A stretch of 64,000 nt of DNA from a virus: positions 1 to 64,000 of IMG/VR virus record IMGVR_UViG_3300045988_039227, one strand, 5' to 3'. Under the pieces are notes generated by a model that was given only the letters and a program-made list of their open reading frames with translations, was not told where the DNA came from and did no database searches. Position 1 is the first letter of the stretch. Each line of letters begins with the position of its first letter. The translations under genes were made by a program, and so were the position numbers. Shown in pieces: positions 9,745 through 55,728 of the stretch.

Positions 9745-9755
9745 ACAAAATAAAA

Positions 9756-27040: not shown

Positions 27041-27060
27041 GTATTATAATATCAGTAAAT

Positions 27061-29479: not shown

Positions 29480-29485
29480 CAATAA

Positions 29486-29518: not shown

Positions 29519-29560
29519 ATTTTGTTTGGTTTAGTTTATGTGAAATGTCTTAGTACGCGT

Positions 29561-32500
29561 TTAAAATCCAGGCATTGGTGCCATTGGCGCCATTTTTGGC
29601 ATAGGCTGCATTGGAGCCATTTTAAACATATTACTAGAACTAGTTTTCTTTTCTTCGCCACCTTTCCATGTGTAGCCACCCATCTTAAACACAGTTCCCG
29701 TTACAGTATTATCGAAATACCATCTACCAACCTTGTCATTACCTCTGCTAGAGCCCCATGTTTGTATATTGTTGAGGACCCCAGAGGCTGTCATTAAAGA
29801 TCTTTGCCAACGTGGGAAATATTTATACTTCGAGTCAGACGAAATAATGTCAGTTGGGTTATTTCCTGTTAATCCAGCAGCATCGGCAATAGCCGTAGGT
29901 ACTTCTGTGAACTTTTCTACAGCAGATGTTACGGTTGTAGCAGATTTAACCATATCTACAAACTGGTAGACATTATACAGCTAGAATTGCGAGTCAATAG
30001 TTCTAAACATACACTGGTCTATAAGTCTGAGATAAACTTTCTGATCTATAAAATTCTTTATTGTAGGTAAAGAATCTTCGTAGGTCTTAGGTTTAAGATC
30101 CTTTGTTTCTTCCTGTACATATCTATGAAATGCCATCCACCCTACAGAAAGCAATGCAAGACAAAGCCCCCAGGTCAAAAACTCTTTGAGAGACTTTACT
30201 TCGTTTTTATTAAACTTAACTGGATCTGTAATAGTGGCTTGACGATTAAACATCTACTGATTAAACCATTTAAGTTGAGTATGAGCTCCTCTCATAAGAT
30301 TTACCAATACAGCTGGATTAGCTTCACCAGTACTATAGTCATACATACATCTCTATGCTTTCTGCTCATTTGTTAAAGGTTTGCGAACAGTTTTAGTTTT
30401 AATAGTAGTAGTTCCACCTCTCTGTACTGTTTCTTTTACCTATTCGATCTCCCTTACAACATTATCTGGTGTGTATCCAGCAAACCAATGTTCTGCTCTA
30501 CGTATAAAGAAGTTACGCATTAAAAAGAAGAATTTATGCAAGACATTGTTACTAACAGCTGATTGATCATTTTTTGGCGAGTTACCATTAAGCAATGCCA
30601 TAGTTTGCTATATGGTAGCAGATAGCTTACTGTCCTATACCTAAGCATTAGCATATGACGGTTTAATCTTTGCTATGCCATGATCGAAATAGTAAGCATT
30701 CCACATAGATTCTCCATGGTTATCTTTCCATTCTCTATTAATCTGCTTCTATGTAAGATTACTATTAACCATAAGCCTATCAAACTCAGACTTCGTATAA
30801 AACCCTTCTTTGACAATAGGATTTCCAGGATAATATTTCTTTGCATTATACGTAGCCCTTTGAGCGAGCATATTCATCATATAGTCACCCATTGTGTAGC
30901 CTCCTGTAGCAGATTGCTTTAAAGCCTTTGTAATTCTATTGCGATAAATATCTTTAAACGTCTCATCATTTGTCCTAACGAGGCCATCTTTCTACATCAT
31001 GGCTACAGCTTTACAATTAGCTATAGGATTACCAATATTAGCTAAAGCCTTCATGAGACCAAACCCTGTATAAAGGTATGCTTTCATTAGGTCTTTAAAA
31101 CCAAACTAGTCATTTCTAGCAGCTTGTGCTGGCATCTGTGTGAAAGAATCCCATACACCTACAAACATTGATGGAACGTTGGCAGCAAGCATAAGATAAG
31201 CCGAAACTCCTCTTGTCTTATTTACAAGCTTTGCTGCTGCAATAGCTTTCTTTGAAGGTTTTTCTCCAGGATTATCATTTGTTTCTCTAGATTCGTAAAA
31301 CAATTGTTTTAGCATCTTAGCATATCGCTCTTGCTATCTAGTGCCAGTTCCTTGGTGTTCGGAGTCTCTTGTTTCGTCAGACAAGTTATAACCCAATGTC
31401 TCAAGTTTAGCTTGTACTTTAGACTTATTTACAAAGTTGTTAGCCATATTTACAAACATACCAACAGTATAAGCTAGATCAGAACTAATCATAGAAGGAT
31501 CTTCCATTTCGTTTATAAAACGTGTTGGAGCAGTTTTGAGAACCCATTTACCATTACGCTATACGAAATCACCTTCATCCCTCATGTTTGTATCATCAGA
31601 TGTAGCGCCAGTTGCATTTTGAAGTTTATTCTTAATGAACTTTTTAGGGCTACCCAAAGCTCTGGACCTCTTCATGTCAGAAGTTCCCTCCATCTACGGA
31701 AGTTTAAATCTGTTATATGATGGATCGAGTCCAAGCTTATCCCATTGCTATTCCATCGTTTGTACAAGTAGGTTATAGTACTATGCTCTAGCATCTCCTT
31801 TCTAGATGAATTTAACAAACTCTTTGTCTCCATACTTATCGAAGTCTGGTTGCAAACCACTTCTGTCACCATCATAGAACTTATCGTCGTATATAGAAGA
31901 TATAGATGACCCTTTCTTTGTTGTAAAACGACCCTTAGGAATATATCTTGATGTAGGCTAATTGTTGCCAAACGTAGCACGCTTAGGAATTATCTGAGAA
32001 AATATTGTAAGAGGTACTTGCTTTGATTTCATAGAGCCATCCTTACCTTCCCATGTCTTTGTATACATAAGAATATTCTCAGCTATCCATCTCTCTACAG
32101 ACTATCTATTACCACCAAGTGTAGAGAAGTCTATTGCTATCTTACCATCAAGCGATATATATCTAGGCATCCTGCCATCAAGAGCTGCATCTGTATACTG
32201 TTTAAGTATGTATTCAAACCACGACATAGGTTCTACGCCATTTGGATTGTTGCGTGGGTCAAATTTTGTTACTCCATCTTTAGCTAATTGCATTCCAGAA
32301 GGATCTGTATAAGGAACTTCTCTAATATCAAAAGCGTCTCTAAATTCTTCTGGATCTATACCAGTAGCATTATTCTCTTCATTATTTTTAATATCAGCAG
32401 ATCTTGAATAGAACCACATGTCTGGTATCTTTACTGTACCGTCAGGCTACTAAGAAAAGATTACATTACTAAAATCTTTAACAAAGCCATTCTTTGTCTT

Positions 32501-35500
32501 AATAAGCTTCTTCATTGAACTCTAGAACATTCTCTACAAACTTTCTTTAGCAGACTTATTTTTACCAAAGATGTATTCGAGATATTCTGGGTTTATACCA
32601 TATTCTGAATTAGCATCAATAAACTTATACAGATCCTGCGTAGTTTTTTCTCCAGCTTTAATCTAATCTACTATATTCTGGTACTCTTTATCAAACTCCT
32701 CAAAATCTGTAGAATAGTCTGTTTGTTTAGCTAACCAATTATTCCAAGACTGTATCTCAAGAGCCGTCTGTAACTCATCGCCTTCTTTGAGATTACCTTC
32801 TTGATCAAATGGGTTACCTAAGTCTTGTAAGGCATCCTTCCACATCTACAGTTTCTGATAATCGTGAGGATTAAGCTTTTCTGGGTAGGATAAACCAGTC
32901 TACTTATCTGAACATTTCTATAATAAATAGTTAAGTTGGTCTTGTATATACTGCTGCCTAGAAAGTGTTCTTGGAGATAAACCGTGACCAGTTCTAGTCT
33001 TTGGATCGTAAGGTTTACTCAGACGCTCCATAAAGTATATCTTAGAATATCTTCTGTGCGCATGATCACACAGCCATTCCTCATATCTTCTTTGATATGT
33101 TACATAGTTTGGTTCTTGATCTCCGATCCACTACTCTTCTTCTACAGATGATTCTGTGTCGCTTCTTAAAGTCTCTCCAGTTATAGGGTCTTTATAATAG
33201 AAATAGCCATATTTATCTTGCCATTCTTTATTAAGCTTCTCTTTAAAGTTTTCCTAATCTTGTTTAAACTAACCTCTATTAACAGCTGATCTAAACAAGC
33301 CTGTGAACTCTCCCTTCTTAGGACCGTCTGTATACCTCTCCATCAACATTGTCTACCAGTTTCCTGGAGTAAGGTCATCTATGATAGAGTTGGCTTTATC
33401 AAACGCTTTAGCTATCTACTGCATAACAGGAAGAGATTCTTTTCTAGTCTGTTGATCTGCATCCTGTATCATCTAGAATGCTTGGCGAATAATAGGGCTG
33501 TTCTATCTAGAATAGTTAAAGAATAATGTAAGTTTAGACTCATCTCCATACATATCGTTCTTATGAAGCCAATCTTTAGCTACTGTCTTTATTTTATTCT
33601 TCTCTTCCTCTGACTCGTTAATATACTTATCCACATTTTCATCAACTATTTTATCTGCTACAATTTGTGCGGCATCTTTCCATAATTGATTAATCTATCT
33701 TACTGTAGCATTAAGTGTATCAACATCAGCCTAATCTCTAGCATCGAGATCCATCTAGTTATCAGACAATGTTTTGACAAGATCGTTGTAGAAGTCTATA
33801 ATATTAGACTTCATATCGTGTATCTATTCAGCTGTAAGGCTATCGAAATTATTCTTCTAACATTCCTGCAAGAAGCCTAAAATAGTGTCTCTACGAGCCT
33901 ATAAAATAGTATTGTCAATAGGGTCACGCGCAAACACACCAATGGTCTTTAAAGCAGACTGTATAGCTATTCTTGAGGACTCTTTCTTTTCTTGTGACTT
34001 GAGCTCCTATATTGTAGACCACACTTGATCTTCTCTACGCTGTCTATTAGCGCCCTTGTTAAGCTATTTTTTATAATCCTTGTACAATCCCTAGAAAAGC
34101 TCAGTTATTCTATGATGTATCTGATTAATCTTATCTTCAGAAGCTTGTATTGAAGCTAATCTATCTTTGGCTTCCTTATCAGTTATATTGTCTTCTTTCT
34201 ATTCGTTGTGAGACATAACTGTAAACAAATCGCTAACAGCGGCTTCGTATACATTATCTGAACCAATAAATCCTTTATAGCTTGTAAATATCTAAGAATA
34301 TATTTTCTTTATAGTCTGCTTAATCTTTTCGAACAGTGTTTGTTTACGATTATATTGTATAGACTTTAATTTTTCTACAAATTGCGCATTACTTAATTCT
34401 GCTACAAATTCATACACGTCGCTCAAACCGTAGTCCTACGCATCTTCTCCAAGAGCTTTCTTTGTTTTCTCATAGAGATCTGTAAATGACTTTCTTATTC
34501 TAGAATCATTACCAATCGCATGTTCTGTTACAGCATGTAGCATTTCATGGACGATTGTCTATACTTCAGGCGCTTGCGACTTACTTTCGTTTCTGAATCT
34601 AGCATTTTTGTTTATACGGATAACCTTATCGACTCTATCGTAATGTGCAGCCTCTCCTCCAGGAAGATTATCAACTATTTCATATGTAATTCCAGTCTAT
34701 TTATCATTAAAATACCTATTTACGGCAGCCATAACGAGCTTTAAAGCTGTACTAGATATGCCACTTCTATGAGATTTTAAATACTGCTACAATGTTGATA
34801 TGTCGCCCTTAGAAGGTATGTTAGACAACCTAGTTGCTGCTCCCATATTCGATTCTCCTTGAGAAGATGCATATATGTCATCTGGATTAGCAAACTGTCC
34901 ATTGTTGAATACAGATTTTACCTATGAATTATCTATACATTCATATACAGTATGAGGAGAATACGTTTCGGCGGAAGACCCATAATCAACAACGTTGTTT
35001 ATTATTACGCCATCATGATGAAAATCAGGATTGTAAAAGTGTATATTATTTTTCTAGTATTCCTACTTTATTTGATTTATATCTAAATCCAAATACCTTT
35101 TTATAGTAATAATATTATCTTTTATGTAAAAATTAGCATCTCTATTTTTATTTATGCTAACAGTGACTCCATATATATTAAATTTAGAGAAATCTTTATT
35201 CCTATATCTAGTATAAAGATCTGCTCTTGAATCGGATATTTCTGCATCAGAATAATTAGTGGTAAGGTATGTTTTTTCTAAATCCCTAGTTGATAGTGCT
35301 TTCTATCTTTCTTTTGCATAATATATAAGGTCATCTTCTGATATGCCTTTAAATAATGATGAAAGATATCTAGACTCCATAATATTTTCGTATATTGTTT
35401 TAGCCTATTCGGCACTAAAAACATGAACAATACTATAGATTATATCGTCGAAATTAAATTTTGAATCATATTTGTCGTCATCAAATGGAAGAATATCGTC

Positions 35501-36463
35501 AACAAGTCTATCTTTAAATTTATTTAATTTGTCATCAATTTCGTAATATCTTTTTTCATGAATATTGCTCCAACTATGACCATATGCATCAATTATTTTC
35601 GGGTTTTTGATATTTAAATAGTCAACTTTTATATTATCATAAAGATTATTTTCAAATCTGTTTTTATATTTTTCCGGATTAGCGTTATTATGTATATCAC
35701 TAAAATTGTAAAACGACCCTATTATATCTTCATATACAGAAGTAATTAATTTAAAAGGAACATTTGGATCCTAATACTCAACAAATAGTCCATCTAATTT
35801 TAACAAACAATCTTCTGCGTCTTTTATGTTACCATAATTTATCGCTTCTATAATTTTTTTCTTAAGAATATTATTAAACCAATCAAAATTACGTTTATCT
35901 TTAAAATCAGATTCTTCAACATTGTTCAAAATGCTAATAACAGTCCTTTTGGAATCTGTGTACCACTATGAATATTTTTTTAATGTGGCGTCATTAAACG
36001 ACGATAATATATAACTAGTCACATCGTTATAAGTCGATGACATAGTAATGCTATCTGTATGATATATAGCAGTTTTAAAACCTTCTATATTTGTGTCAAA
36101 CTTCTTAAAATTAGGACTATATTTACTGTTTACTGTATGATATGTAACCTACGGCTCTCCATTCTTATCTACAACTTTAGATACATTTTCTTTATCTTCA
36201 GAAGTCCAATCCCCAAACCATTTAAAGAATTCGTCAGAATATACTTTTGCCTTAAGTATAAGGGCTTGTGTTCTGTCGCCGTTTGCAATATGCAATAGCT
36301 CTCCAAATAATATAGAGTCGGCGCCATTTGGCGCCTTATCTATACTATATCCATTATTTTTGCTCCAGAGTAAATACGCAGTATCCTCATCGAACAAATC
36401 TTTTAATTCACCAAATTCTTTGGCTACTTGTTTATTATGTAAATTAGGACATATTTCTTTCAT
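29561..36463 (-). CDS. giant virion-associated protein, 2300 codons, zincin HExxH motif, C-terminal TM and Met/Pro-rich tail (requires TAG as sense)
   Basis: ATG 36463 overlaps the upstream TAA (TAATG). I checked every in-phase triplet by hand: no TAA/TGA occurs until TAA at 29561-29563, and there are about 56 in-frame TAG. Track fragments 36149..36463, 32663..32845, 32102..32419, 31106..31315, 29981..30253 and 29561..29953 are all in this frame. HEMLH lies at 34536-34550. The C-terminus ends MAPMQPMPKMAPMAPMPGF. Confidence 0.75.
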
Positions 36464-39400
36464 TATTTACCTCCTTTGCAATGTTTTCTAATTCTTTCAG
36501 CTTCTTCTATATCTTCCTTAGTAAGATTAATCTATGCCAAAGCCTACTTCTGCTGTTCTTCTTTAATTAGTGTATTAGCGTAATTATCACCTACAACTCC
36601 TTCTATTGATAATCCGTAGCCAGTATAACCTGCTCTAGTATTTTCCTAAACTGTTGATTTTATGTTAAATCTAGAAAGTAATTGTAAACTAAGCCATTCA
36701 GCAGCCTCTCTAGGTAACGCTGCTTTGCCAAGAGCTATAGCGGATGGGAATACAATTGGTTTACTATTGTCTATTCTTGCAAGCATATGGTTAACCCATG
36801 ATTTAAATGCCATTATATCACCTTGATTATCCTAGAAACATCCATCTTTAGCAAGCCATCTACCAGAAGCATCTTGCTGATTAACTTTTACTACAAGACC
36901 AAACGCATTAGGTGTAATTTTGCCATCACTACCAGTTCTGATGCAAGCTTGATTTGTACCAGTAGCACCAGAGCTTACATTTAATACCGGATTCTAATTA
37001 GCAAAACCTTGCATAGACAAACCTTGCGCCTTAGCATAAGCCTAAGCATTATCTGTGAATACGTACTGTACATTTGGGTGTTGTTGAGGCTAGTCTTTAT
37101 AGAATAACTGTTTGCTTATATACACAGTCTATCCAGAAGGACCTTTACCATCAAGATTAATATTAACAGCACTTTGTGTACTTTGTTGTTCTACAGCTTG
37201 TGATATTGTAGGATATTCTGAATTAGCATTATAGTACATCTAATTGAACCACGACATCCAGTTATTGCGCTGCTCGTCAGTAATATTTGGCTTCATCTGA
37301 CTAAGATAAGTCATAAGTTTACTAAGTTGGTTTTCAATAACTTCTTGACTCATAGGAATTCCATTTATATTTAGGTTAATATCACCAGCTTCGTAGATAT
37401 TAAGACCATCTCTATCTGACCAGCCCCTCTTAGGTAATAACGCATATACGGCACGCTTGGATCCATTAATCATAGCCTCTCCAACCTTTTTATACAATGT
37501 GTATGACGTTGGATCGCTATATACTGCTCCATCATTTCGTACTGATATATACAAAGCATCATGTTCGTGAGAGTCCTTGCTAATTATTACAGCAGGAGAA
37601 TACTAAGCATTGAAAGCGTAATAGTAATCTTTGAATGTAGCTCTGCTTACTAAATCGCTATCCATATAGTTGTTCTAAGCTATAAGATCGTGATTAATTT
37701 CTGGGGCTTCAAGTTGTTCCCTAATATAATCAGAGAATGGCACCGTACTTTCGTCGTGTCTAGCTTCAAGCCAACTCATAGGAATGTATTTAGCTATTTT
37801 ATTAAAGCCCTTTGTATCGCCAGATGTAAGCATTGCATACAATATAAGATCATTCGCAAATCTTCTAACATTAGCCTAATGGTCATTAAGAAGCTCCTCC
37901 CAAGACTCTATAAACATATCAGAAGACATCTTACTCTCATCCATACTATTAATAACGCTTATAAACTTAGGTTTGTTAGTAGGTTTTCCGTTTACAAAAA
38001 CATCCTAATCCTAAATATATGGAGCAAGATGTGATAATAGATAGTTATCTTTTAATCTACCTAAACCGTATGCATCACGCTGAATACAAGCCTGTATAGA
38101 GTTCAATCTATCAAATATTGTAGCATTACCGTCAAATAAACCTTTAACATCAATACCTAAAGACTTAGCTAATCTAAGAGCGTATCTAGCTTTAATCTAA
38201 CTACTAGCAGCCTATGATATCTTCTTCATAGTCTTAGCGTTTCTAAGCAAATCGGACTCTCTGTCATTCGTCTTATATTTAAAGTCATCGGATAAATTGA
38301 TAAGCTATTCCATAAACTAAGGTGTACCCTAGAATGATTGTCCAGCCATAACTCTCATAGGCTCTTGAATAGCGTCTCTTGTTTTCTACTCAATCCAAGT
38401 ACCATGTATAAGATTATTGATAGAGTTCGTATCAAACAGCTAATCAGTTTCTGGGTTTGTAAGATTCTCGTAACCTCTAAGATAAGCTTGCATCTCAAGG
38501 AAATTCTTACCTTGCTTACGAGTATCAATCTTAGTATACTGTACCAAACTATTTAATGCGTTAGAATACTTTTCAAGACACTTCCATGCTATGTAGCAAT
38601 TAACCTAGAAGGCTCTAGCTCTTTCTCCCTCTTCGGTCTAAGCATAGACTAAATCTGGGTTCTTAGCAATCTTCTAAAGCATATCCATATTATTGAGTAC
38701 AGAGTTTACTATCTCTGCTCGTCTAGCTGGTTCGCCTTTAGATTTATTTGGTTCAGTAGCGTCTTTAATATACTAATCGTCTATTGTTTTGCCAGTAACG
38801 CTAGGGAATATCTCTGCGAGTCTCTTATCTCTCATTTCGAAAGCTGACCTAAATACCTTAGGATCTCTAGTAAACTGAGACTTTGCATCAATATCTGCTT
38901 TAGCCATCTCTCTAATAATAGGCTAACATAAGAAATAAAGACCTTGTTTACCCTTACCGTTTCTAGCAAGTAAGTTGATCATATTATATGTAAACCCATT
39001 TACATTAAGCTTAGAGATATATGGATCTTTCACAATATCTACGTGGGCATTAATGAATGCTGATAACCAAGATGAAATCTGATTATTATCTTCATCAAGA
39101 ATCTAATCGAAACCGGTAATACCTGTCATCCGTGTAAAGCTAGACTCTTTAAATTTAACACCATACAATGTTGTAAGAATATGGTTTGTTACATTCAACG
39201 CAAATGGACCAATACCAGTCTTACCTGTAATGTAGTCATTTTTACGGGTAACCTGTTCATGCAGTGTACCAAAGTTGTACGCTACGCTCTTTGTGTTACC
39301 CTGTTCTGGAATCTCATCTGCAATGCTTGTTACAAGCTCTGTATCATTATCGATAGATTTATATAAGATATTAAGTGACTTTTTATCCTTAAGTACTGTA

Positions 39401-42400
39401 AGAATACTTTCTATAATGCTATTCTACAATCCTTCTGCGCTTTCTGGATCAAATTCATAACCTCCATTCTCATTAACATTATAACGTGCTAAATAAAGGT
39501 GGTCTATATCAAAATCCGAACCAGTAATCTTGGTAAACTCAGTTGGAAGTATTACTGTAGATTTAACAGCAGGTACAACATCAACAAAACGTAAAGCATG
39601 TATAGATGACTGAGCCTGTGTAGGAATACGATAACCAATCGTATTAGATGTGGCATTTTCTCCGATTATATTATGATCTAAAAGCCATTGTCTAGCTTCG
39701 TTGTAAGATAAGTTCTTTGGAAGTATATCCTAGAAGTAATCAATAGATATTACAGCATCCATAGAGCCTTCTTCGTTTATCATCTACAATCTCTTACCAT
39801 TATAGATCTCCTATCCTTGTATACCGCCTTCGCCATTTTTGCCTTCTATAGCAAATACTGATCTCTGAATAAACGAGCTACCAGGAGTCATAATGTCAAT
39901 AATATCCTTATTAGCCGCAGATATAAGCATAGACTCCATCCAGCTAGCATCAGCAGTAGATGCAATAGGCGCATTCATTGAGCCCGTCTATGGATTATAT
40001 GTAAGAGCGTCTATAAGATTCTTATTAGCATTTCTTGTGCCAAGTTGCTCTATAAGGTACTCGCTAAGCTTCTTTTGGTCTATAATTCCGTTAGAGTAGA
40101 ATCTATCTTTAAATTTGTCTACACCAAGTTTAGAAAGCTTATTAATAGAGCCCATTAACTTGTCTCTAAGCTGTTCTCCAGTCATGTCGCCATACGTTCT
40201 ATCAAGTCGCAAACTAGATAAACAAACCTTAATCATCTGTGTACCGGCTGCTACAACATCACCTTCCTCTGGATCAGTATTAAGCTGTCTACGAAGCGCA
40301 GATAATCTCTGTGTATAAACGTTCAGCGGCTTACTAATAGTCTCTCCATCGAACTCAGAATGGCCTTGTAGACCAACCTTTACAGCAGATGTCATAAGAA
40401 GATTATCAACCTTATTTTCCTTCATCTTATCATACACATTCTTAAGTTTACCTGTGGCTATACAATCAAATATAGGGAACAACGCAAACTTATTATAATA
40501 TGGAACAGATAAGTTAGAAACCTTCTTTCCATTCGTTGTATGATCCCTAAATCCGTATGCTGTATATTTTGTTGTTACAAGATTCACTTTATTATACACA
40601 AGGTCGTATGCATCTTTTTGATCCATCCACGAATATTTATCAGAACTTTCAAGGATATTAATAGCCTTTGCTACGTCGCCGAATAGCGCACCTCTAGAAC
40701 GAAGCATTCTTTTGCACATATCTGCTGTAATGTAAGATGCACCATCGGCTACATTGATTCCACCAGTATAGGCTTTATAGAAGTTGTTAGCTCTAGTTTC
40801 TATCTTCTTAACAGCATCCTCGCCAAAGTCGTCTACAAGCCTAGCTCTTACTGCGCCTATATCTAAATCATCAACACCTTTAAATCCGTAACGGTTTCCA
40901 TAGATTTCCCTAAGTTCACCATCACGCATCTTCTCTTGGAGTTCGCTCATTACATCGGCATTTGAAGCTACTTCATAGTCTGCTATCTCTGCACATCTAT
41001 AAAGTTCTCCATCTGAACCATCATAGTTTGGCAACGATGGGACGTTGTCATCACCTGTAGACACAAGGCCACCGATACGTTTCTGAATATCCTCTACGTT
41101 CTTAAAGAATCCAGGGTTGCCAATATATAATCTCAAGCATTCTTCTGATGAAATCATACCCCTATTTGTAACATCTTGTAATATAGCTGCTATAGCCATA
41201 CTATACGCTGTACGCTGTAAATTTTGTGTATTAGGCGTTATTCCTTTATCGGTGAGATCTTTATACATCTAAGCGTATAAAGTGCGTTCTACAGCATCTA
41301 TTTGGCTCTAATTAAGGTTTATGTTATTAAGGCCAAGGTAACCAAGCTTTTCATCTTTTGACACTATACCAAGACTAACGGCTTTATCTACCTCAAGTTC
41401 GTACTGCTCCTAAAGTGTTAAAGCCATTATCTACTCTTGCTCTTCTCTAGACTTATCAAAGAACTGTTCATTAAGAGTCTTAAGCTATTCGTCAGGAGAC
41501 ATATTGCTTATTTCGTAGCGTTTAATCTAGCCGTCTTCATACACTCTAAGTGTCGTAAGTGATTTAAACTGAATACCACCAGGCTACTTTCCTTTCTTGC
41601 CGATGTGATAATTCATTATCTTGTCTTCATCATTAAGTACGGGTAAGCCCTTAGGGTTATCTACATGTAAACCAAGTTGTTCTCTACAATCAAGTATAGC
41701 TTCACGCTCTGTATAAGCATATTCGATAAACTGATTTAATACAGATTGATTAGGCTGCAAATAGTAGTGAGAGCTATCTAAGAATATCATCTTTGGTGCA
41801 CCGGATACAGTATAAGCACCATTGTCTAACTACCCGAACTACATTCCAGGGATATTTATACCACCAAGAACCATATATGTACCCTTATCGGCAAGGGTTG
41901 GGAATACACAATATCCATTCTGAAGCATTGCGAACTTATTAATATAATCTTCAGCTTCAGCAAGATTGCTATATTTAGAACCATTGTCACCACGATTATC
42001 AGACTTGAAGCCAATAGGAGTATAAATACTAATATTGAAATCTTCTCCGTTCTGCAATTGCTTTGCAACAATAGAACCCATGTTCACGCCATTATTATTC
42101 ATAATGTTGTAACTAGACTACAAAATAGTCCTTACTACCATATTGTTCTTATCATGACTATTAAGGTTCTCTGTAGTATTGCTAATACTATTGTTCTATG
42201 ACTCGTTATACAGCTTAGTACCATCCATACCATTAGACATCTTATCTGTAGTAATCTTCATATAGGCTCCAGCCCAGTTACCTAATTCGCTAACAAAACC
42301 AGTCTTAAATATCTCGTCTACAGCCTTCTGTGTTGTATAACCATTTGTTTGTACGACTTTGCCGACTGCATCAATAAAACTATTAATATTAGATACACCA

Positions 42401-45400
42401 GTAGATGCAATCCACTTTTTAAGGGCTTCTCTACCAACGCCATTATACTTTGTAGATAACATATGATCGAGCATTTCTTTTGTAAAGTTTATACCAAGCA
42501 TATTAAACTCTTTGCATATATCATCTTTAAGTACCTCGATATCACTATTAGATGCTGCGCTTCTAATCCTTCCGTTTATCTTAAATTCACTAGCAGAATC
42601 ATTAAGTATCTACGATTGTAAATCAGAGAAGAACTGAGATATAAATCTAAATGCGTTTCTTGCTACAGTCGTAGGCATATCTACCTAAGTATTCTTTGTG
42701 TTATACTTTGTAGAAAGAAGCAATTGTCCATTCTACCCAACATACCTCTACAATAAGCCAGATTGACCAGAAGATAAGAACGAGTTCCAAAGCTTAGGGT
42801 ACATTCTGGCATCTCTGTCGAAGTTTGCATCAGATATTTTGACTTCAACACCTCCGTTCTTATTACGTATAGACCTACCAATAATAAAGTTGTGTTCATG
42901 GCCCTTTATAGCTGTAAAGATTTGTATCATAAACGCTTCTTTATCGAAGTCTATCTTTTCAAGCTAATTATCGTCGTTGAATGTATAGATAGAATTGTAT
43001 AGATCGCTATACTTCTAATAGATTGCCATATACATAGGGTTCTGCGTAGATAACTCCTGCAGTCTATTTAATAAGTCTAAAGGAGTTTTAACATCATGTA
43101 ACTTGCTAACAACTACATTAAATACCTGCTTAATAGGCATAAATGTAGGAACGCCATATATGTTCTTAGATGTATCAAGAGCAAGTTTACCGTTATCATC
43201 AAACTTATAGTAAGGTATTGTAGCAAAGAACATCTTCACTGGCTTACTTACAGAATCAAGCTTATTGAACTCAAATGCGGACTTATCGTATCTTTCGATA
43301 GACTTTCCATAATCATTCTCTTCCTGGTCACTTGTCTCAGAATCGTCATCATGCTGATATTTGCCGTCATAGGCATCCATTATTTCGGTAAGATACTTCT
43401 ATACTTCTTTTGATATAGCTGAGAAGTTAGGGAATACAACATCACCTTTATCATTTAATTCTGCGTAAAACACTTCTCTAAATGCTTGCTGTGTAGGAGT
43501 AACTGAATCAACAGACATATACTATCCATTCAGAACGGGCTTAACAGAACCTGGCTCGCCAATAAGGTTGTTTATAACCTTCATTGGTATATATTTAATA
43601 GGAAGTTCTGAAGAGCTGTGTACTGCATCATATATATCAGTAGCATCTTTAGCAGACTTTACTATAATATATCCAAGAGCTCTAGCCATATGTTCCTTCT
43701 CAGCGGCAGAGCCTATATGATCGAATTTGCGTCCATTTATTTCATAATGCAAGTCTTCGCCAAACAGCTTTTTAAATCTATCTTGCTGTTCTTTGCTTAC
43801 CTATTTATCTGCATATTTTCCAGACTTAATATCGTTGAACAAAGTAAGAACCGTTTTAGCATTGTTTCTGTAATGCCACAAGATACTTAATCTGTTAGCT
43901 ACTTTCTTTATATTCCTCTTAATCCAGCCTTGTTTCTTTATAGCATTAGCGTCTTTTGTGCCGAGCATATAATCGACGAATAAATCAGCCAATCCCTCAG
44001 CTACATCTCTTTCTGTAGCAGCTTCTGGATGAGCTTTTCTGTATGCAGAATACATCTATTCTCTTACAGATGGCTCTACAAGTAATTCTAATGCCCTATG
44101 GAATCCTTCATGGAAGCCAATAGTATAAGGAACTGAATTAGACATCTAGATAACAGCATCTGTACACCTAGCAAGTACTGCGCTATTCTTTTTATAAGCT
44201 ACATCTGATAACCTTTCGCTTTCTACCCACTATGGAGTAATACCTGTTGTCTTTCTGACCCATTCATCAACGGCACTAGCAAATGATGGCTTTTGTTTCT
44301 AGCCTTCAAACTCTGATAAATCTTGTTCATAGAACAAAGACATAAATGTGTCTTCGGCCTACTTTTGCTGCTATTGAATATCTTGTTTAGCAACTGTTTT
44401 AGATGCTTGCTGAGCGCTTCCATTTGGATGATTTTGTACAAGCTCTACATTATCTACGTATACTGTAGGAGGATCAAGTTTAGCTGCATATGACATTAAA
44501 TAACCATTGCGCAGCATATAACCAAGACCGGTAGTACCTTTGCCATCATGAGTAAAGTCTTCTCTTGTAAACGTAAGACCATTTGGAAGTTCTACTTTAT
44601 CAAGGTTAGGATTTGATGCATATTGCGCATTAAGCTTAGCTAATACACTATTATGTGATGACTATATATATTGCTGCATATTCTACTGAACAAATGCAGC
44701 ATCTTTTGTCATATACATATTACACAGAGCATTGTAGATATTAGCGTAGTCTACACTAGGATTTTGCGTAGGGTAAATAACATTACCTATTATAACTCTC
44801 TTATTAGCCGGATCTAATGTAACAAGACCTTCTATTGAGTTATATTTCTCATTTAATACTTTATTGTCAGCCTTAATATAAAGAACCTGCTTAAGTAAAT
44901 CGTCTATAGAATATCCTTGATACTCATTTAAACCTTGATAACATTTATACCATATAAGGTCTGCAATCTTATTAGCCTAACCACCTTGACCAGCAGTAAA
45001 TTTAGGCTGTATTAACGGCGTACCAATACATCTATTATCTACAGCTTTCTCAGTCTGACCAGTATCATAGAAGTATACAATATTACCAGATTGTGTTATA
45101 GCTGTACGTTTTATATATTCTAGATCAAATCCACTAATTAAAGTTGATAATTCTGGGCCACCATATACCATCTTCGTTACGTCACCAGTGTTTACGTTTT
45201 GTGTAGCCTTAAGGAAACCTATTCTGTTACCAGCGTCGCATGTAATATTGTACAAATCATGCTAATTAAGCGTTCCTGCGAACAAGAATTTACTTACAGG
45301 CTATAATTCACTACCGTTCTTAATTGAACCCTTAGAACGGCTTAATTTCATGCTTATATGGTATCCTGGATGTGTTTTCATAAAGTCGAGCATATACTTA

Positions 45401-48400
45401 ACTTTCTATACAAACACAGCATCTGCAGCTTTCTTTCTAGCAAAATATACCGGATCAACACCCCTTGGACCAGCGTCATTACCCTGGTCGAATGTCATAA
45501 AGATTGTTCTGCCTTTAGAATCTGTAAGCTTAAGCTATACTTCATTATTTCTCCACACAAGCTCAGCATTACCAGATTTTCCAGAAGCATCTGGGTAAAT
45601 CAAATGCGGATCAAGCGCTATAGAGAAGTAATGCGGGTCAAGTTTAGCCCTAAATGCAGGGAAATGTTTAGTAGTATCACTATACAGCTCTCTCCATTGA
45701 TCGTCAATCATATTGATACTCTACGCGCTGTTTGTATCAAGTATATCGTCAACATTTGGATCTACAGGGAATCTCTGGTTATATTCTCTAATGAAGTCTT
45801 CTGCATCATAAATAGTATCAGTAAGCGCATTATCAAGAGCTGTATTTGTTTTCTATACATTCTTTGTATTATCAGTCAAGAACTTAAGCTAATTATTTAT
45901 AACCGTACTCCAGAATCTTTGCAAACTCTTGTTGCCAACAAGGCTATTCATAAACTCGCCATCAAATGTAGCAAGGAATGACTTAATCTTGTTAAAATAA
46001 GTAAAGCTAGGATTACCAATATTAGATGAAAATTGAGTCTGCCACATTTGTAAGGCCTTATTTGCAGCGTCTCCGTACATCATCCTATTGTCTACTAGCT
46101 TATTAATAGCTGCTGCTATAAGCTTCTGCTCTGGAAGGGTATCGCCAACTTCAAACTAATCGCTACCGTAGAATTGGTCAAGAGCTGTCTAGGCATCATA
46201 TATTGAGTAAATAAGCTCATTAACTTGAGCTCGTTCGTCTGCTGTTGTAATATTAAGGTTTGTAATAGAACTTAACAGCGTATCAAGTTTCTTGCAGATT
46301 TCATGAATAGTATCAAGACCCGCCTAATATTGTTCATCTACAATAACGTGATCAAACGCATCTTCTGGGTAGAATCCAGGTACAGTATTCTCGTGCTATT
46401 TAGGCTACATGAGCTAATTTAAGCGCATCTGAGCGTCTTCTTTTAAGCTCTGGATAGATTCTATAGCTGAGTAAAGATCTCTCATCTGAAGTAATAATTC
46501 GTCCTTATTTGAGCCTTCTTTAAATATATCGTAAGATGGTACAGTTTTATGTTCGCCACCAGCTTCAGCAATACTATCGTATATACTTTGCAAATCAGAC
46601 ATAAGATCGTTTACTTTATTCTGCAAAGGTCTGACAACTTCGTTAGAAATATCTTCATTAGATTTATTGTAATATGGTGTTACAGGCTTGTTGAAATCAA
46701 GCATTTCTACTTTAAATACAGGTTCTGCTACAATTCCACTCGCTGTTCTATCATAGTAGAATGGCATTACGTATGTGCCTTCAATATTAGAACCAAATGT
46801 ATCGTAAAGTACCTAATTTAATCTTTGAAGCTATCTCTATTCCTACTGGATCATTGTTTCTTTAGCTCGACTATTGGACTTCTAATTACCAAGCATTCTG
46901 GTTTTTATGTCTGGTTTAAATGAAGATCTAACATCTATAACAAGAAGCTATCCATCATTATCAACAAGTACAATATCAGCCTATGATTGTATAGCTCTGC
47001 CTTTGTCATCATAGCCATAAATAGGAATGTCTGTATCAAGTACTCTATACTGACCGCCGTTGAGCATTCTGTCTCTAACAGACTTAACATACTGCTTAGC
47101 ATCTTCTAGTCCATTCGGATTATCTAACAGCGTGTCGGCAAAACTATCGTCATTTCCTAACATTATAGCCTATGCTAGTTCCCTAATAGTTTCTCCATCC
47201 CTTATAGACTGAGAATTAAAATAAGCTGTATCTATTGATGCTAAATAATGAGCAAATCCCTATAATAATTCCCCTTTATTTGGCTGAGAAAATATTGTGT
47301 CAATTATATCAGAATAATCTTGATCTCCGAATCTATCTGTATTATCTGCAAGATATCCAAGTATCTACTATTTGTCAGAGATGTTTATATTTTCCTCAAT
47401 TTCTGGATAATGAGACTGATATTCAAGTCTGTCTATCTCGTCTATATTTTCAAATACATGTAGATTATTATTATCGTCGTACGCTATTGTTGTATGGAAA
47501 CAATGTACAATAGCTCTGTTCTATTGACGCTTTAAAGCCTTTCTGTATCCATCGAATGATGTATCTTGAGAGGCATGTGTGGCAACTTGTGCTCCATAAG
47601 ATTGTACATCCATAGGAGTATTCATATTCTCCTTTTCTTTACGTGTTGATGTAAGGTAATGGCGAATATACATTGCTTTTGCTAAAGCTAATACTGAAGG
47701 TCCGCCGTCCTAACCAGTCTCTTCTTGAAGAATAGTTTTTATATCATTGTAGAGCTATTCAAACTTATAGAAACCAACCTTAGCGTTCTCCATAAGACCA
47801 TCGAATGACTACATTGCAAGTTCATCAAATCCAAGTAAAAATGATACTCTTGCTTTATTGCGCCTAGCTTTGCGCTTCTTTCTATAATGCTCTCTAGCCT
47901 TATCTCTACGACGTTTATATTCTTCTGCGTGTTTCTAAAGCTCCTCTGTAGTAGCTATATGCTTTTGCTAAGTTTCTGTTGGGTCTACAGCTTGCTTAGC
48001 TTGAGTATTAATGTCTTTTATATCTTCCTATGCAGCTTTAAGTATATCATTCTAGTAATCCTCTGTAAGCTTTGTTACAGCGTCTCCAGAATATATATCG
48101 GATAACATCCAGTCTATATTTTCATTCTGTTTGTTTGCATCGATAATCTTTGTGATACGCTCGTTAAGCTTACTCTTTGACCCGTCTTTAGCCGCAGCTC
48201 TAGTATGTTCTTCTGGCTTATATTTATCACCGAGCTTCTGCTTTAACTCAGCCTGCTTTCTCTGATACCTAAGCTCATCTGGATTATACTCAAGATTACC
48301 ATTATCATCACGTGTAACGCCTTCTGTGTGAATTGATAATGTAGAGTTAAGTAAGGATTCGTTAGCTGTATACATAGCTCTAGCTTGTTCGAGCTCCTGG

Positions 48401-51400
48401 ATCTCGTTATCATTAAATCCAACAGACTCGCTAAAATTGTTCAAGAATTGTAATGTCTATTCGTCTGTAGACTTCTCGTCGAAATTCTTATAAGCTTTAG
48501 CTAAACTTTGCTTTGCGCGAGCAATTTGTTTATCTATATTAGCAGACAACAACTTAGCGTCAGGTCTAACGGTCTTTAATCCAAGCTTATCGTGAGCAAA
48601 CTTAAATATGTCATCAATAGAATTCATCTTTGCTTTAAGTGTAAGCAATGCTTTCATTCTATTGTGAGCTTCAGAATTTCTCTGGAAGTTATTTATATGT
48701 CTATCGTGCTCTTCTTTCTATGAGCGCTCAACAAACTTTTCGCCATATTCGTTTGCTTCATCTTTGATAGATTCTTTGTATTCTACTACAGATTTTTCTA
48801 CTTCCTCTTGAGGCAAAGCTGCTGTATCAAGAGACTTCTTGTACTCATCCACCTTTCTGTTAACATAAGACTCGATTGCCTTAGTCTTTGCTGTAGCTGC
48901 ATTTATAGCAGTTAGCATAGGATCTCTTGACTATTCCTATCTATTTACAGCCTGTTCTACCTGATTTTGATAACCTTGCTGTCCGTAAATCTACTGAAGT
49001 CTAGCCTCGGCTTCCTACTAAGCTTTTCTGTTAGCAGTTAACTATTGCTCGATGTTAGCCCTATCAGCTATAGCTACATTGTATTGTTCTGTACCTTTAC
49101 TGATACCTTTAAGACGATATTGCTGTTCAGTCTACTTATTGTTTACGAGAGCAGAAATACGCTCCACATTAGACTGTAAATCATTCCAATACTGTTCACC
49201 AAAACGTGGTCTCTCTCGCTTCAAATCAGCCTCTCTGAGCTACTATATTTCTGTAGTCAGCTAATTATACCTTCCCTTAGAGATCTGGTCTGAAATAACA
49301 GCATTACTAGCTCTATTCATCTTTCCTTGTTCTCTATCAAGAAGCGCACTGTGCATTATAGCGTCTTTTACTTGTACGGTGTTCTTAATGTCATTAACGG
49401 CATGATAGATGTTCATGGCTACCATAGGATGCATACCACCCATAGCAAAACCACCTCGCCAGTTTGACAACATCTCCATATCGTTATAAAGTTCAGATTC
49501 GCCAAGACCAAACATACCTTTATAGAAGTCTGATACCTCTTTGCTATGAGCCATATCCTGGAATGCAAGACTGAGCAAATCAGCTGATCCGTATCCATAT
49601 GTCTTAGCAAACTCTTCAGCAGCATTAGCATTCAACTGCTGTACAATTTCTTCATTTCCTTCAGACGCTCTATCTATAATACCTTTTCTAACCGTATTGA
49701 TACCGTATTTGTTAAGCATTTTGAGAGCAGTAACTGTATTAGGATTCTTTACGGCTGCTTTCAGTAGTTTTCTCTTCAGCGTTTTAGCTCCAACCATAGT
49801 TGCTAATGCTTCAGCCTTCTTCGCTATAGCCTCACTAGCCATAACTCCTGCGTCTTTTAGAGCTTGCGGCATGACTTCTTTTGCAAGCCCCTTTACTCCC
49901 CTAGCAACTTCTCCTGCGGCAGCACCAACTCCAGCGCCAACATAATGTCCAAGAACACCACCACCAAGTACATCCATTGTTGTTGAGCCAATCTTTGCAC
50001 CAGTTTTGCCAGCTGCACTTGTAAGAGAGTTAACATACTGTCCAGCCTGTGCAAATTTACTTTCAACAGCTCCGTTTAATCCCGCGAGAGCATAGTCTGT
50101 ACCAATAACCAATCTTCCAGCTTTACTAGTGGCAAGCTTTGCCCCAAGTTTTGTTGTAGGAAGTTTATAGATGGCTTGTCTATAAAGACTTGATAGACTA
50201 TTGCCTGGCTATACATATGATATAACGTTTTGAACAACTTCTGTACCCATCGTTCTAGCGTTATCTACCATAAATTGCTATTCAAGACCTTTTGTTGTAC
50301 CGAGTTTAGCTTTAGATAAACGTGGATCATTACTCTTTGTAACGCCCATTAGGTAATCACTAAGAACTTTTTCCTTACCTTGCTGTGTATTAAGATTATA
50401 TCTATCCTCGGCATCTTTCTTAGACATACCATTCTACATTGCAAATTTTACAGACTGCTTTTGCAAATCTTTATACGATGCAGAAATACCTTGTGCTTTA
50501 CCGGAAGCTTCCTACGCTTCGTATTTATTAAGATTCTATTGATAGTTCTAGGTCCAACGTTGAGCAATTTCAGCGTAGTTCTCATCTTCTGCACCTTGCA
50601 GATTAAATGGAAGTGCAGCTGCATTAGCAGCGTTGTACAAAGCAAAACCAGCTTCTGGATGTCCGGCTGCTCCCAAAGCAAAAGAACCGACAGTACCAGC
50701 AGTTGTTATAAGATTACCAATATTACCTGTGTCTGAAGACCAAGAAGAACCCATCTGTTGAGGCAAATTCCACAACCAATAATCAGGTGTTAATAGATCA
50801 TCATTAGCATGTATATTTGCAAGATTCTCAGCATGTTTACTAACGTTCCAGAACTTCTTCCACTTAGACGCTCTACGCATCTAATCGTCAAGAGTTTCTT
50901 TGTAATCCTTAAGATCTTGCTAACGCTTAGCTTTAAATTGATTTGCTTCTATTTCTTTTTGATCCAAACTCATTCCTTGATGAGCCTTTTCAAATCTATT
51001 GGATAGCTACTTATTATAGTTATCAAGCCAATCCCTAGCCATCTACTCTTTGGATCTACCTGTGCCGTCAAACATATCATTTGTGACAGCAAATGCCTTA
51101 GTCATAGCAGCCTGAAATCCTTCCCACATAGATGTATGATCTTTCATCCATGTAGCCTTGTATGCATCGGCGAGTTCATTTAAATCTTTGTCTTGCAGCT
51201 AATCGTATGTTGACAAGATTTCTTTACCAAGTAAATACGTATCTTTCCACGCATCTCCTTTAACCTAAGCTTTAGGATTAGCTTTAAGGTAATTCCATTG
51301 GTCTTCCTTTGATTTAAGATCTCTTTTAAGTCGCTCCCTTTTGGACCATGCATCAGCTTTTGCCTAGTCTGTCTAAGCTAAAGCGATTTTACCCTTTGTG

Positions 51401-51948
51401 CTTTCAATTCCAAGATCGCTAGACTGATTTGAAAACAAACCAATTCTCTAGCCAATCTTCCATAACGTGAATTGAAAACTATCTTTTCCAAGTTCGTTTA
51501 TACCGCCAATATCAGAGCCAACAGAATTTTTGTAGATATCAGTCTTTTTAAAGTCTTCAAACAGCTTATCTTCCTCAAGCTATGTTTGCTTCTCTTTCTC
51601 TGCGTCAGAAAGTATACCTTCCGAGTCATCTTGGGCATCAATCTTTTGTCTGTTTGATCTTTCTTGTTGCTTGTATAAGCTGTCAATATGTTTATTCCAG
51701 TCATATTCAGCTATAGCATTTTTCTATCTCTGAATAGATTTTTGACTAGGCTTATACCAATCCCCGTGCGGCATTATATCAGACTCTAATCTAGAACCAG
51801 ATTGTCTTGATATGTAACTTGGTACATTAGCCTAAGTCCTTTTATTAGGAACGGATTGGCGTTGATTTGGTAGCGTTATACCAAATCTTTTAGCCTATCC
51901 TCTAAAATAGTCCTCTGCTGGGGACTTAAGTAAATTGTAATTTGCCAT
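36463..51948 (-). CDS. giant 5161-codon ORF containing a crAss-type two-barrel virion RNA polymerase module (requires TAG as sense)
   Basis: ATG 51948 follows an in-frame TAA (51952-51954). The hand phase scan found no TAA/TGA until TAA at 36463-36465, and about 124 in-frame TAG. IGYRIPTQAQSSIHALRF...ILPTEFTKITGSDFDIDHLYLA parallels the beta-prime segment NRAPTLHRLGIQAF...NADFDGDQMAVH, with DFDID at 39502-39516. HEGFH lies at 44098-44112. A TAG-free 426-codon block lies at 39988-41268. Confidence 0.75.
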
Positions 51949-51955
51949 AATTTAA

Positions 51956-55011: not shown

Positions 55012-55705
55012 ATCTTGGTTTTATTAAATCTTTTCCTCGGTTGGCGTATAATACATCATCATACGTGTTACCATTATCTAAATAATATTGCTATGTAAGA
55101 CCTTCTGTTGCAGCTGATGATTGATTAACCTAGTTAACAAGATTAACTTTCTATTGCGCATTAAATATTTTTCTACGCTGTCTTTCTCTAGCTTTCTTAC
55201 TTCCAAACAGACCTCCGAATAATCCTGTGATGGCTCCAACCGCTCCACCTATAACAGTTCCAAGTCCAGGGAAACAGGAACCTATAGCAGCTCCTGCAGC
55301 AGCTCCAGATCCAACCATGCCTAACGTTGCGTTTCTGTTTGACTTGGATATATCTTCCATTGCTTTCTGTCTGTTAATATCATTCTACGCTTGGTAGTTT
55401 ACACCAAATGCCTAGTCTGTTCTTTGTCCAGAGTAAGCCATAAGTTCATTTGATCCCTTTACTGCGTCCTACATGGAATTATATCCCTGTATCATTCCTA
55501 TTGTGCCATTAACAGCTCCTGTTACTGCACCAGCGCTTATTCCGCCTCCTCCGAAATTTGTACTGCTAGGAATTTTCATTCCATTTATTTCTTTAATTGT
55601 TGGTAAAGATGTCAGCTATTGCTTATACGTATTAATTCCAGATATATCACCACCAATACTCTTTACACTACTTGATAAGTCTATACCATTATTGTATTTT
55701 GGCAT
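54995..55705 (-). CDS. Gly-rich protein with a glycine-zipper TM segment, 236 codons (TAG as sense)
   Basis: Phase-checked. Contains GMVGSGAAAGAAIGSCFPGLGTVIGGAVGAITGLFGGLFG. An alternative start is ATG 55738. TAA stop at 54995-54997. Confidence 0.6.
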
Positions 55706-55728
55706 ATTATTTATCTTCTTTCTCTATT

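Follow-up and report, generated by a model that had tools for sequence, protein, structure and literature searches.

A late gene of a crAss-like phage encodes a predicted giant fusion of a cargo module, an HExxH domain and a virion RNA polymerase

The 64,000-nt stretch of viral DNA analyzed here (IMG/VR record IMGVR_UViG_3300045988_039227, positions 1 to 64,000; termed the window) carries on its minus strand a giant open reading frame (ORF), in which a small HExxH domain lies between a large phage cargo module and a virion RNA polymerase (RNAP). The ORF starts with the ATG at 51946-51948, with a TAA directly upstream at 51949-51951, and its stop codon (TAA, 36463-36465) overlaps the ATG of the next gene in the form TAATG. 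An earlier note, made from the sequence alone, had described a single ORF free of TAA and TGA with about 124 TAG codons, and a codon count of the 5,161 codons agrees with it: inside the ORF there are no in-phase TAA or TGA and 124 TAG. TAA and TGA together make up approximately 2.8-6.1% of codons in the other frames of the window, so that 145-315 would be expected over 5,161 codons where none is observed, and a chance origin of the ORF is thereby excluded. The start and frame agree with independent gene calls in more than 60 related assemblies, for example P0001, whose protein begins MANYNLLK. The mass of the encoded protein would be approximately 590 kDa.

The gene order in the window is a muzzle-sized ORF, three small ORFs, the giant ORF, a 2,300-aa ORF and a strand switch at approximately 29.5 kb. 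This matches cr130_1 and cr272_1, in both of which a gene of 2,074-2,281 aa separates the giant coding sequence from the strand switch. In syntenic relatives, the upstream genes, with matches to Pfam CrAss_Ring and crAss_MUZ, correspond to ring proteins, the muzzle and three small ORFs. The giant ORF is thus found where a crAss-type RNAP is to be expected, in a cargo and transcription block beside the structural module and ahead of the strand switch. The features of the giant ORF and of the gene downstream are listed in Table 1.

Table 1. Coordinates of features in the giant ORF and the downstream gene (window positions; aa, residues of the respective protein)
Feature	Position (nt)	Strand	Residues and remarks
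Giant ORF	36463..51948	(-)	15,486 nt; 5,161 sense codons + TAA; 124 TAG as Gln
N-terminal cargo module	44299..51948	(-)	aa 1 to ~2550; positional ortholog of crAss001 gp47 / phi14:2 gp67
PD-(D/E)xK nuclease-like motif	46921..46986	(-)	aa 1655-1676; SQADIVLVDNDGQLLVIDVRSS, also written QADIVLVDNDGQLLVIDVR
gp47-type HExxH (zincin-like) domain core	43744..44295	(-)	aa 2552-2735
HEGFH motif	44098..44112	(-)	aa 2613-2617; candidate metal ligands and general base
AEGLAD	43984..44001	(-)	aa 2650-2655; Glu2651, candidate third metal ligand
Virion RNAP module	37369..43581	(-)	aa ~2790-4860; homolog of phi14:2 gp66 / crAss001 gp50 / p-crAssphage gp44 N-terminal half
DFDID, catalytic Mg-binding motif of DxDxD barrel	39502..39516	(-)	aa 4145-4149; aligned to gp66 1361-DFDID-1365
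Empty group I intron insertion site	39513..39514	(-)	between first Asp codon and Phe codon of DFDID
Bridge-helix equivalent (approximate)	39175..39264	(-)	aa ~4229-4258 = gp66 1529-1559; BLAST alignment
Trigger-loop equivalent (approximate)	38965..39081	(-)	aa ~4290-4328 = gp66 1598-1636; BLAST alignment
C-terminal accessory domain, DUF7831-like	36604..37146	(-)	aa ~4935-5115; PF25176 E=0.002-0.003, below curated cutoff
Conserved C-terminal tail	36466..36501	(-)	AERIRKHCKGGK; near-terminal Cys (...RKHCKGGK)
Downstream partner gene	29561..36463	(-)	2,300 aa; phi14:2 gp65 / crAss001 gp49 ortholog; blastp vs gp65 E=1e-9
gp65-type zincin-like domain, downstream ORF	34097-34879	(-)	aa 529-789
HEMLH, downstream ORF	34535-34549	(-)	aa 639-643
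YEFVAE, downstream ORF	34397-34414	(-)	

The earlier note had placed a DxDxD magnesium loop near 39.5 kb and attributed it to the two-barrel virion RNAP of crAss-like phages. The loop is present as DFDID, at aa 4145-4149 (39502-39516), in a peptide that begins at aa 4105 (nt 39636) with GYRIPTQAQSS...DFDIDHLYLARY, and the attribution is upheld by both residue-level alignment and profile comparison. The window sequence IGYRIPTQAQSS...TGSDFDIDHLY aligns residue by residue with IGYRIPNQGQSS...TGSDFDIDKMY of phi14:2 gp66, the flanks IGYRIP.Q.QSS included, and the DFDxD motif is also kept in cr130_1, cr272_1, gp50 and gp44. Alignment to crAss-like RNAPs had been proposed in the note as a check. When the RNAP module of the window was combined with six Suoliviridae-type relatives in a profile, and Z was fixed at the number of PDB sequences, gp66 was matched with E=3.5e-78, in four collinear segments over gp66 residues 169-1795, and crAss001 gp50 with E=3.5e-60. 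The matched span of gp66 takes in the cleft-blocking region, both barrels, the connector (1095-1238), the bridge helix and the trigger loop, and the trigger-loop equivalent of the window includes the conserved SAF(I/L)NA.VD..KDPYI. The virion location, RNAP activity and element boundaries of gp66, and the requirement of each DFDID aspartate for its activity, are taken from the Drobysheva preprint (10.1101/2020.03.07.982082); gp66 crystallized in a self-inhibited form and might need activation (Drobysheva et al.).

In tblastn searches, the DFDID region matched only Crassvirales. The best matches were cr130_1 (46-57% identity), cr131_1 and cr272_1, all of the Suoliviridae/Oafivirinae, and weaker matches were found to the RNAP genes of phi14:2 (E=5e-8), PhiCrAss001 and p-crAssphage. 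These matches place the source phage among the crAss-like phages (Crassvirales), closest to the Suoliviridae/Oafivirinae. Relatives at 88-99% identity form more than 60 protein clusters from independent assemblies. A chimeric or mis-assembled contig was ruled out, the window being collinear with the independent 99-kb contig L007 at 94-96% nucleotide identity.

Among ORFs listed with TAA and TGA as stops, those on the plus strand of 1-29.5 kb contain almost no in-frame TAG, and every minus-strand ORF of 29.5-64 kb contains many. In contig L008, which is 70% identical to the window, CAA, CAG or TAG is found opposite 37-54% of the window TAG codons and opposite 49-59% of the window CAA and CAG codons, and the substitution spectrum at TAG positions is the same as that at true Gln codons. 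These comparisons indicate that TAG is a glutamine codon in this phage and is confined to the late-gene strand. For late proteins of crAss-like phages, metaproteomics has shown TAG-to-Gln recoding (PMC9523058). The tRNA-Gln in the cr130_1 locus has the anticodon TTG. The division of the genome at approximately 29.5 kb is sharp, with a TAG-free plus-strand part (1-29500) and a TAG-rich minus-strand part (29561-64000), and the sign of the GC skew flips there. ARAGORN returned for the window a tRNA-Met (6481-6555), the only tRNA, and a permuted 'tmRNA*' (8850-9206), which overlaps a plus-strand ORF and is probably spurious.

In the protein database, the close relatives (more than 60 clusters) are recorded as proteins of approximately 4,180 aa that end in ...TGSD and a short unrelated tail. 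Contigs L007 (22451-23362) and L008 (22391-23303) have inserts of 912 and 913 nt, respectively, exactly at the position equivalent to the boundary between 39514 and 39513 of the window. The insert carries a LAGLIDADG_2 ORF and gives two partial Rfam group I intron matches (RF00028, E=3e-8 and 1e-5), and in keeping with the splice-site rules the 5' exon ends in T and the insert ends in G. The window sequence matches the exon flanks exactly, and exon 2 keeps the reading frame. The approximately 4,180-aa records of the relatives are therefore explained by a group I intron inside DFDID. Among IMG/VR contigs, the independent contig L010, which has 86% identity to the window, runs across the site without a break, as does its reading through DFDID; five others carry the intron junction. 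Because the exon flanks are identical, exon 2 is in frame and L010 is continuous, the window is, as far as comparison of these contigs indicates, a natural intron-free allele and not a mis-assembly, and it supplies a natural intron-free reference allele. In another contig, L011, an insert of only approximately 261 nt (~9582-9842) lies at the same DFDID site.

The ORF is a single late gene that encodes a virion RNAP under code 15, in an architecture that is known and very common. Comparison with other crassviruses indicates that it is a natural fusion of modules that they encode as separate genes, in the order gp47/gp67-like cargo module, small HExxH...E domain, gp66/gp50-type RNAP and variable C-terminal accessory domain. 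Residues 2510-2695 of the giant protein match the C-terminal end of the Kehishuvirus gp47 ortholog (E=2e-9), and the N-terminus of gp47 matches the N-terminus of phi14:2 gp67 (E=1e-8). crAss001 gp50 has matches in gp66 and in p-crAssphage gp44 (N-terminal half), and gp49 in phi14:2 gp65 and gp44 (C-terminal part). From these cross-matches (gp47/gp67, gp50/gp66/gp44 and gp49/gp65/gp44), the three modules are seen to be joined differently between lineages: as gp67, gp66 (RNAP) and gp65 in phi14:2; as gp47 and, further along, gp50 (RNAP) and gp49 in crAss001; as gp45 and gp44 (RNAP + gp65-like) in p-crAssphage; and as a gp47-like + RNAP + C-terminal domain protein followed by a gp65-like protein in the window. 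Fusions of virion RNAPs to large proteins have been described in crAss-like and N4-like phages (Chaban et al. 2024, PMC10770324), and RNAP genes of 'up to ~6000 aa' are a hallmark of the crAss-like phages (review PMC10136315). The approximately 3900 further codons that the earlier note had set beside the polymerase are indeed present; they consist mostly of the fused gp47-like cargo protein and the non-barrel parts of the RNAP. The size is not exceptional, since RefSeq orthologs reach 5,801 and 6,386 aa and the family maximum is 6,939 aa.

The N-terminal cargo module is poorly conserved, with few invariant columns. It is rich in Gly and Ala at aa 395-460 and 600-700, and has a coiled-coil-like composition rich in Gln, Glu and Lys around aa 1000-1500. 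A classical transmembrane helix was sought in this module and rejected, no 19-aa window exceeding a Kyte-Doolittle value of 1.3.

The HEGFH pentapeptide reported in the earlier note at 44098-44112 is at aa 2613-2617, in a domain that we term the gp47 type. When 13 orthologous segments with identities as low as 13% are aligned, no columns other than the H, E and H of the motif are invariant, and Glu2651, which lies 34 residues past the second His, is near-invariant (E144/E100 in alignments A1, A3 and A5). A search of a 5.8-billion-protein set with a profile of the HExxH alignment gave 13 matches, mostly fragments. When 1.84 billion representative proteins, clustered at 50% identity, were searched exhaustively with a profile, 3,338 clusters had the HExxH domain at E<=1e-3, and 1,745 at E<=1e-10. 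The counts of HExxH, of continuous and broken fusions, of gp47-like proteins and of near-terminal Cys given here and below are drawn from the best 150 of these 3,338 representatives, of which 124 have at least 2,000 aa and are termed long. The HExxH is kept in 124/124 long representatives. The HExxH and GSDxDxD motifs are found together in one continuous ORF in 73/150; the length of these fusions has a median of 4,641 aa and reaches 6,939 at most, and 25 of them have at least 5,000 aa. The spacing from HExxH to DxDxD has a median of 1,473 aa in the continuous fusions and is 1,532 in the window. Seven of the best 150 are gp47-like proteins that end shortly past the HExxH domain. A profile of the domain prepared without Steigviridae sequences still matched residues 2101-2231 of crAss001 gp47 with E=1.4e-26. 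This pattern indicates that the HExxH motif is selectively conserved and is not a chance pentapeptide. In 27/124 long representatives, the fusion is broken inside GSD/F/D/xD (slashes mark the breaks), at three or more different positions, and the catalytic codons of the polymerase look like a recurrent insertion hot-spot.

Structural models were made with AF2 on the 97%-identical segment of P0001, not on the window sequence. A 320-aa model had a pLDDT of 60 and its Foldseek matches were meaningless; a trimmed core of 184 aa was modeled with a pLDDT of 89.2 and a pTM of 0.87. The order of elements in the core model is a helix, three strands, the HExxH helix, a helix, the Glu helix and further helices, which is the order of zincins, and Glu2651 sits on model helix 95-110. 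The weak Foldseek matches in the PDB include PprI/IrrE and collagenase T. In the viral structure library (BFVD), the significant matches are crAss giants only, and among the matches of the weak tail are M48 and lethal-factor entries and entries named 'large polyvalent protein-associated domain'. A zincin fold is plausible for the modeled domain, which is most likely a catalytically active metallo-enzyme.

A second HExxH domain in the cargo block of the window lies in the downstream ORF, so that the giant ORF and the downstream ORF have one each. It is the downstream domain that belongs to the published crAss type. The H-E-H and E-F positions are invariant in the gp65-type alignment A4, and the motif is kept in cr130_1, cr272_1 and phi14:2 gp65. 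The gp65-type profile also matched residues 1696-1860 of p-crAssphage gp45, which are labeled 'zincin protease' in the curated record, with E=1.2e-6. The downstream ORF has weak matches to PF18818 MPTase-PolyVal (E=0.012) and to a SprT-like domain (E=0.08). The gp65-type crAss zincin was reportedly recognized by Yutin in 2018. It is the zincin type of the published crAss-like phage work (Drobysheva 2021). We considered whether the in-cis HExxH of the giant ORF is this published zincin and rejected that identity, since the reciprocal profiles do not match and the downstream ORF is the member: the gp65-type hidden Markov model had no match in the in-cis region of the giant ORF, and the in-cis profile had no significant match in p-crAssphage gp45. 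Compared directly by hhalign, the two domains were weakly similar (P=0.0018, probability 15%), and their motifs lay in register. The alignments suggest that the in-cis and gp65-type domains are distant paralogs at best.

No paper describing the gp47-type HExxH domain was found in the literature that could be searched, outside which many subscription papers lie. The in-cis HExxH domain would therefore appear to represent a second, large and apparently undescribed zincin-like family, located at the boundary between cargo module and RNAP, and modestly new. What was known already is the fusion architecture in outline, the giant size and the polyprotein idea; the modestly new element is the in-cis HExxH family.

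The downstream ORF ends in a Met/Pro-rich tail (...MAPMQPMPKMAPMAPMPGF). In L007, the gene downstream of the RNAP gene (26413-32546) has a match to PF18760 ART-PolyVal; an ART-PolyVal domain was looked for in the downstream ORF of the window and rejected, with none at E<=0.01, and window positions ~34883-36136 do not align with L007.

The nearest known counterparts of the giant ORF are the RefSeq proteins of cr130_1 (YP_010113266.1, 5,801 aa, Chuhaivirus simiae) and cr272_1 (YP_010113476.1, 6,386 aa, Buhlduvirus porcinus). Like the window gene, they follow the muzzle and small cargo genes and precede a gene of approximately 2,100-2,300 aa and the strand switch, and they share the HExxH...AE.LAD, GSDFDIDHLY and ...HCKGGK tail sequences and in-frame TAGs. 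The cr130_1 protein is collinear with aa 337-4888 of the window protein, at 33.5% identity overall and 46-57% in the RNAP core, but unlike it has no DUF7831-like stretch at its end. With approximately 33% identity overall, the window belongs to a different genus-level lineage from both. Their RefSeq names ('DprA-like...', 'hypothetical') do not say RNAP.

More distant systems share single modules. phi14:2 gp66 (2,180 aa, PDB 6VR4) has the RNAP homology, DFDID with its flanks, and the bridge-helix and trigger-loop regions, but is a stand-alone protein encoded between separate gp67 and gp65 genes in the standard code, and the gp47-type HExxH domain is not detectable in gp67. In PhiCrAss001, the C-terminal HEAFH...EENMAEGF domain of gp47 (2,341 aa) is homologous to the in-cis domain of the window and gp50 (2,412 aa) to the RNAP module, but gp47 and gp50 are separate genes on opposite strands. 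The gp45/gp44 pair of p-crAssphage (gp44, 4,070 aa) is another fusion variant of the same three-module block: its record names gp45 'RNAP associated protein fused to zincin protease' and gp44 'RNAP catalytic subunit fused to unknown RNAP subunit'. There the RNAP is joined to the gp65-like module and not, as in the window, to the gp47-like one; the zincin of gp45 belongs to the gp65 type. The N4 gp50 virion RNAP (3,500 aa) has an HExxH in subdomain C1 of its C-terminal domain, but is T7-like and not two-barrel (PMC13434306), and gp96 of the Thermus phage P23-45, a siphovirus, is a 5,002-aa fusion of tape-measure protein and RNAP with a metallopeptidase domain (PMC10770324). Both resemble the window protein in being huge virion RNAPs with other modules and an HExxH or metallopeptidase domain, ejected for early transcription. 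No sequence homology of the giant ORF to N4 gp50 or P23-45 gp96 was detected, and the likeness is one of analogy, not of membership.

We consider it likely that the giant ORF encodes a crAss-like virion RNAP fusion that is packaged as cargo, injected and delivered intact, with an active HExxH domain; for the identity and architecture of the ORF alone our confidence is high. Translation of the gene would have to wait until late in infection, when TAG has come to be read as Gln, and the protein would be packed into the head with other cargo proteins. At the next infection, it would pass out through the tail in a partly unfolded state, before the DNA or along with it, and after refolding the RNAP module would transcribe the early and middle genes, which are TAG-free. 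For packaging, ejection and the transcription of early genes, the proposal draws on experiments with the homologous proteins of phi14:2 and crAss001; gp45, gp46, gp47, gp49 and gp50 of crAss001 were identified as virion cargo by mass spectrometry (PMC10172136). Virion location and Mg-dependent RNA synthesis are on record only for phi14:2 gp66 and crAss001 gp50. The TAG-free early genes of the plus strand fit the mechanism, since they must be translatable before the code switch.

Several results weigh against this reading. No suppressor tRNA(CUA) was found in the 64-kb window, which represents about two thirds of the approximately 100-kb genome. Pfam, PHROGs (with both protein halves) and PDB sequences gave nothing for the N-terminal 2,500 aa, and the HExxH domain had no match in Pfam, even at E<=10, or, as a profile, in PDB sequences. 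Foldseek of the 184-aa model against the PDB returned nothing at E<=0.001 (best E=1.3), and the best structural match, which was weak (TM 0.42/0.40, probability 0.28), was to Zmp1, the minimal gluzincin of C. difficile (5a0p). The two-barrel fold of the window RNAP module is a prediction from its sequence homology to gp66. Searches of a PDB sequence copy, by phmmer with the C-terminal 1,265 aa and with the full-family profile, did not return 6VR4, which may be absent from that copy, and for this reason the local comparison with gp66 was relied upon. The constant position of the HExxH domain at the module boundary, and an acidic linker (aa ~2865-2878), would fit a cis-cleaving protease as well.

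If the ORF were not one translation unit, being an assembly artifact, a decayed or mis-joined gene, or a gene in which TAG terminates, the more than 60 clusters of close relatives recorded as approximately 4,180 aa and ending inside DFDID would be accounted for, as would the lack of a suppressor tRNA in the 64-kb window. The truncation of the relatives is, however, due to a group I intron with a LAGLIDADG ORF, which has identical flanks and leaves exon 2 in frame; the independent contig with 86% identity is continuous, as are 73 fusions among the best 150 representatives; the TAG positions are Gln-like in their substitutions; and homology to gp66 is found on both sides of the junction. This explanation is largely refuted, and we regard it as highly improbable. 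A different question is whether the single protein is cut. The giant protein could be a self-processing polyprotein whose own HExxH domain cuts at the boundary between the gp47-like and RNAP modules, releasing and/or activating the polymerase, and the idea of a cleaved polyprotein is already published: Drobysheva et al. described fused forms as 'likely cleaved' and suggested that self-inhibited gp66 might need activation. The HExxH and the Glu are invariant in 124/124 long homologs, including the general-base Glu, which would be dispensable for a purely structural site. The domain is always at a module boundary: in fusions it precedes DxDxD, and where the genes are split it sits at the C-terminus of the gp47-type protein. 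Genes are naturally split both before and after it (P0084, crAss001 gp47), and it is followed by the acidic low-complexity stretch. Yet the domain is equally conserved where no junction exists, as in crAss001 gp47, where it is intact although the RNAP has a gene of its own on the opposite strand; no cleavage has been reported for the crAss001 cargo proteins (PMC10172136); and the candidate domain has no significant match to a zincin fold or match to a characterized peptidase family. The N4 virion RNAP, moreover, possesses an HExxH subdomain in cis, and the model of its ejection, in which it refolds in the cytoplasm and stays tethered, includes no cleavage step (PMC13434306). Self-processing at the junction seems to us unlikely, although not negligibly so.

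The HExxH domain might instead be an injected effector that acts on proteins of the host, whether envelope or peptidoglycan-associated, defense or transcription proteins, as part of a 'polyvalent' cargo. Iyer and colleagues reportedly described in 2017 polyvalent proteins of phages and conjugative elements, with MPTase-PolyVal, ART-PolyVal and other PolyVal-associated domains. Retention of the domain in split architectures would be consistent with such a role, as would the variable C-terminal accessory domains of relatives (helicase, NADAR and DUF7831), the ART-PolyVal domain in the neighboring gene of a 96%-identical relative, and the enrichment of 'large polyvalent protein-associated domain' entries in the weak BFVD tail; Drobysheva et al. 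suggested digestion of peptidoglycan for the gp65-type zincin. However, the giant ORF has no PolyVal Pfam domain, and across the window none reaches threshold, PF18818 in the downstream ORF scoring only E=0.012. The structural matches are non-significant, and no target suggests itself. We judge an effector role to be rather unlikely. Delivery of the giant protein intact, as a tethered multidomain protein as in phage N4, with the HExxH domain acting elsewhere than at its own junction or not solely there, has in our estimate about an even chance and is somewhat likelier than obligatory self-cleavage, because the HExxH domain is equally conserved in crAss001 gp47 and the N4 virion RNAP stays tethered. 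Since the domain is kept in the separate gp47, cutting of the junction cannot be its sole role, and the fusion would not depend on it for obligatory cleavage there. More speculatively, the gp47-type domain could be an unrecognized gluzincin-like family of crassvirus cargo that cuts beside the RNAP after ejection and so activates the self-inhibited polymerase. We hold this to be doubtful; if it were true, the cut would remove or release the cleft-blocking N-terminal part of the RNAP and would be the long-sought activation switch.

The main value of the analysis lies in correct annotation, as virion RNAP with gp47-like cargo and not as 'DprA-like', 'helicase' or 'nuclear pore-like', which are RefSeq labels. 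The gp65 type is the sole HExxH type discussed in the searchable literature, and the gp47 type sits exactly at the polymerase boundary, where it offers a concrete target for mutagenesis in asking how a self-inhibited RNAP becomes active.

The DUF7831-like domain lies within the last approximately 230 aa of the giant protein. It is mobile, with homologous stretches located N-terminal of the RNAP in P0087, P0088 and P0090, and in some relatives, alongside or instead of it, PIF1/UvrD-type helicase and NADAR domains follow the RNAP. The misleading RefSeq names 'DNA helicase', 'exonuclease V' and 'DprA-like' are due to this mobile domain and to the helicase and NADAR domains after the RNAP.

In the N-terminal module, the family profile has a sub-threshold match (E=0.08) to the catalytic core of Shedu SduA, IDIALVDANGNLDIIEVKK (8ps4; D...EVK), at the PD-(D/E)xK nuclease-like motif. 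This motif is patchy in the family, with DxK kept in 16/32 matches: its Lys is Arg in the window and Arg, Tyr or Leu in the lineage of the window, and DxK is kept in other lineages. The motif is probably degenerate in the window.

Between the muzzle-sized ORF and the giant gene, the late ORF at 54995-55849 on the minus strand (247 aa from the first Met) has a Gly-rich segment and weak Pfam matches to glycine-zipper and bacteriocin-IIc families (E ~0.003). It is a candidate membrane-inserting cargo protein, by analogy with crAss001 gp45.

A near-terminal Cys, within the last approximately 8 residues, is found in 70/73 continuous giants and in 7/7 gp47-like proteins. RNAP and gp65-like proteins that begin a new ORF start with M-x(1-3)-C (gp66 MACK, gp65 MSCK, gp50 MSKRC, gp49 MAKKC and gp44 MSCG), and the downstream ORF of the window starts with MKEIC (36440-36463). 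These conserved near-terminal cysteines of cargo-chain proteins could interest specialists. The sequence AGGAGG, contained in the final codons of the giant ORF, lies seven bases ahead of the TAATG start of the next gene.

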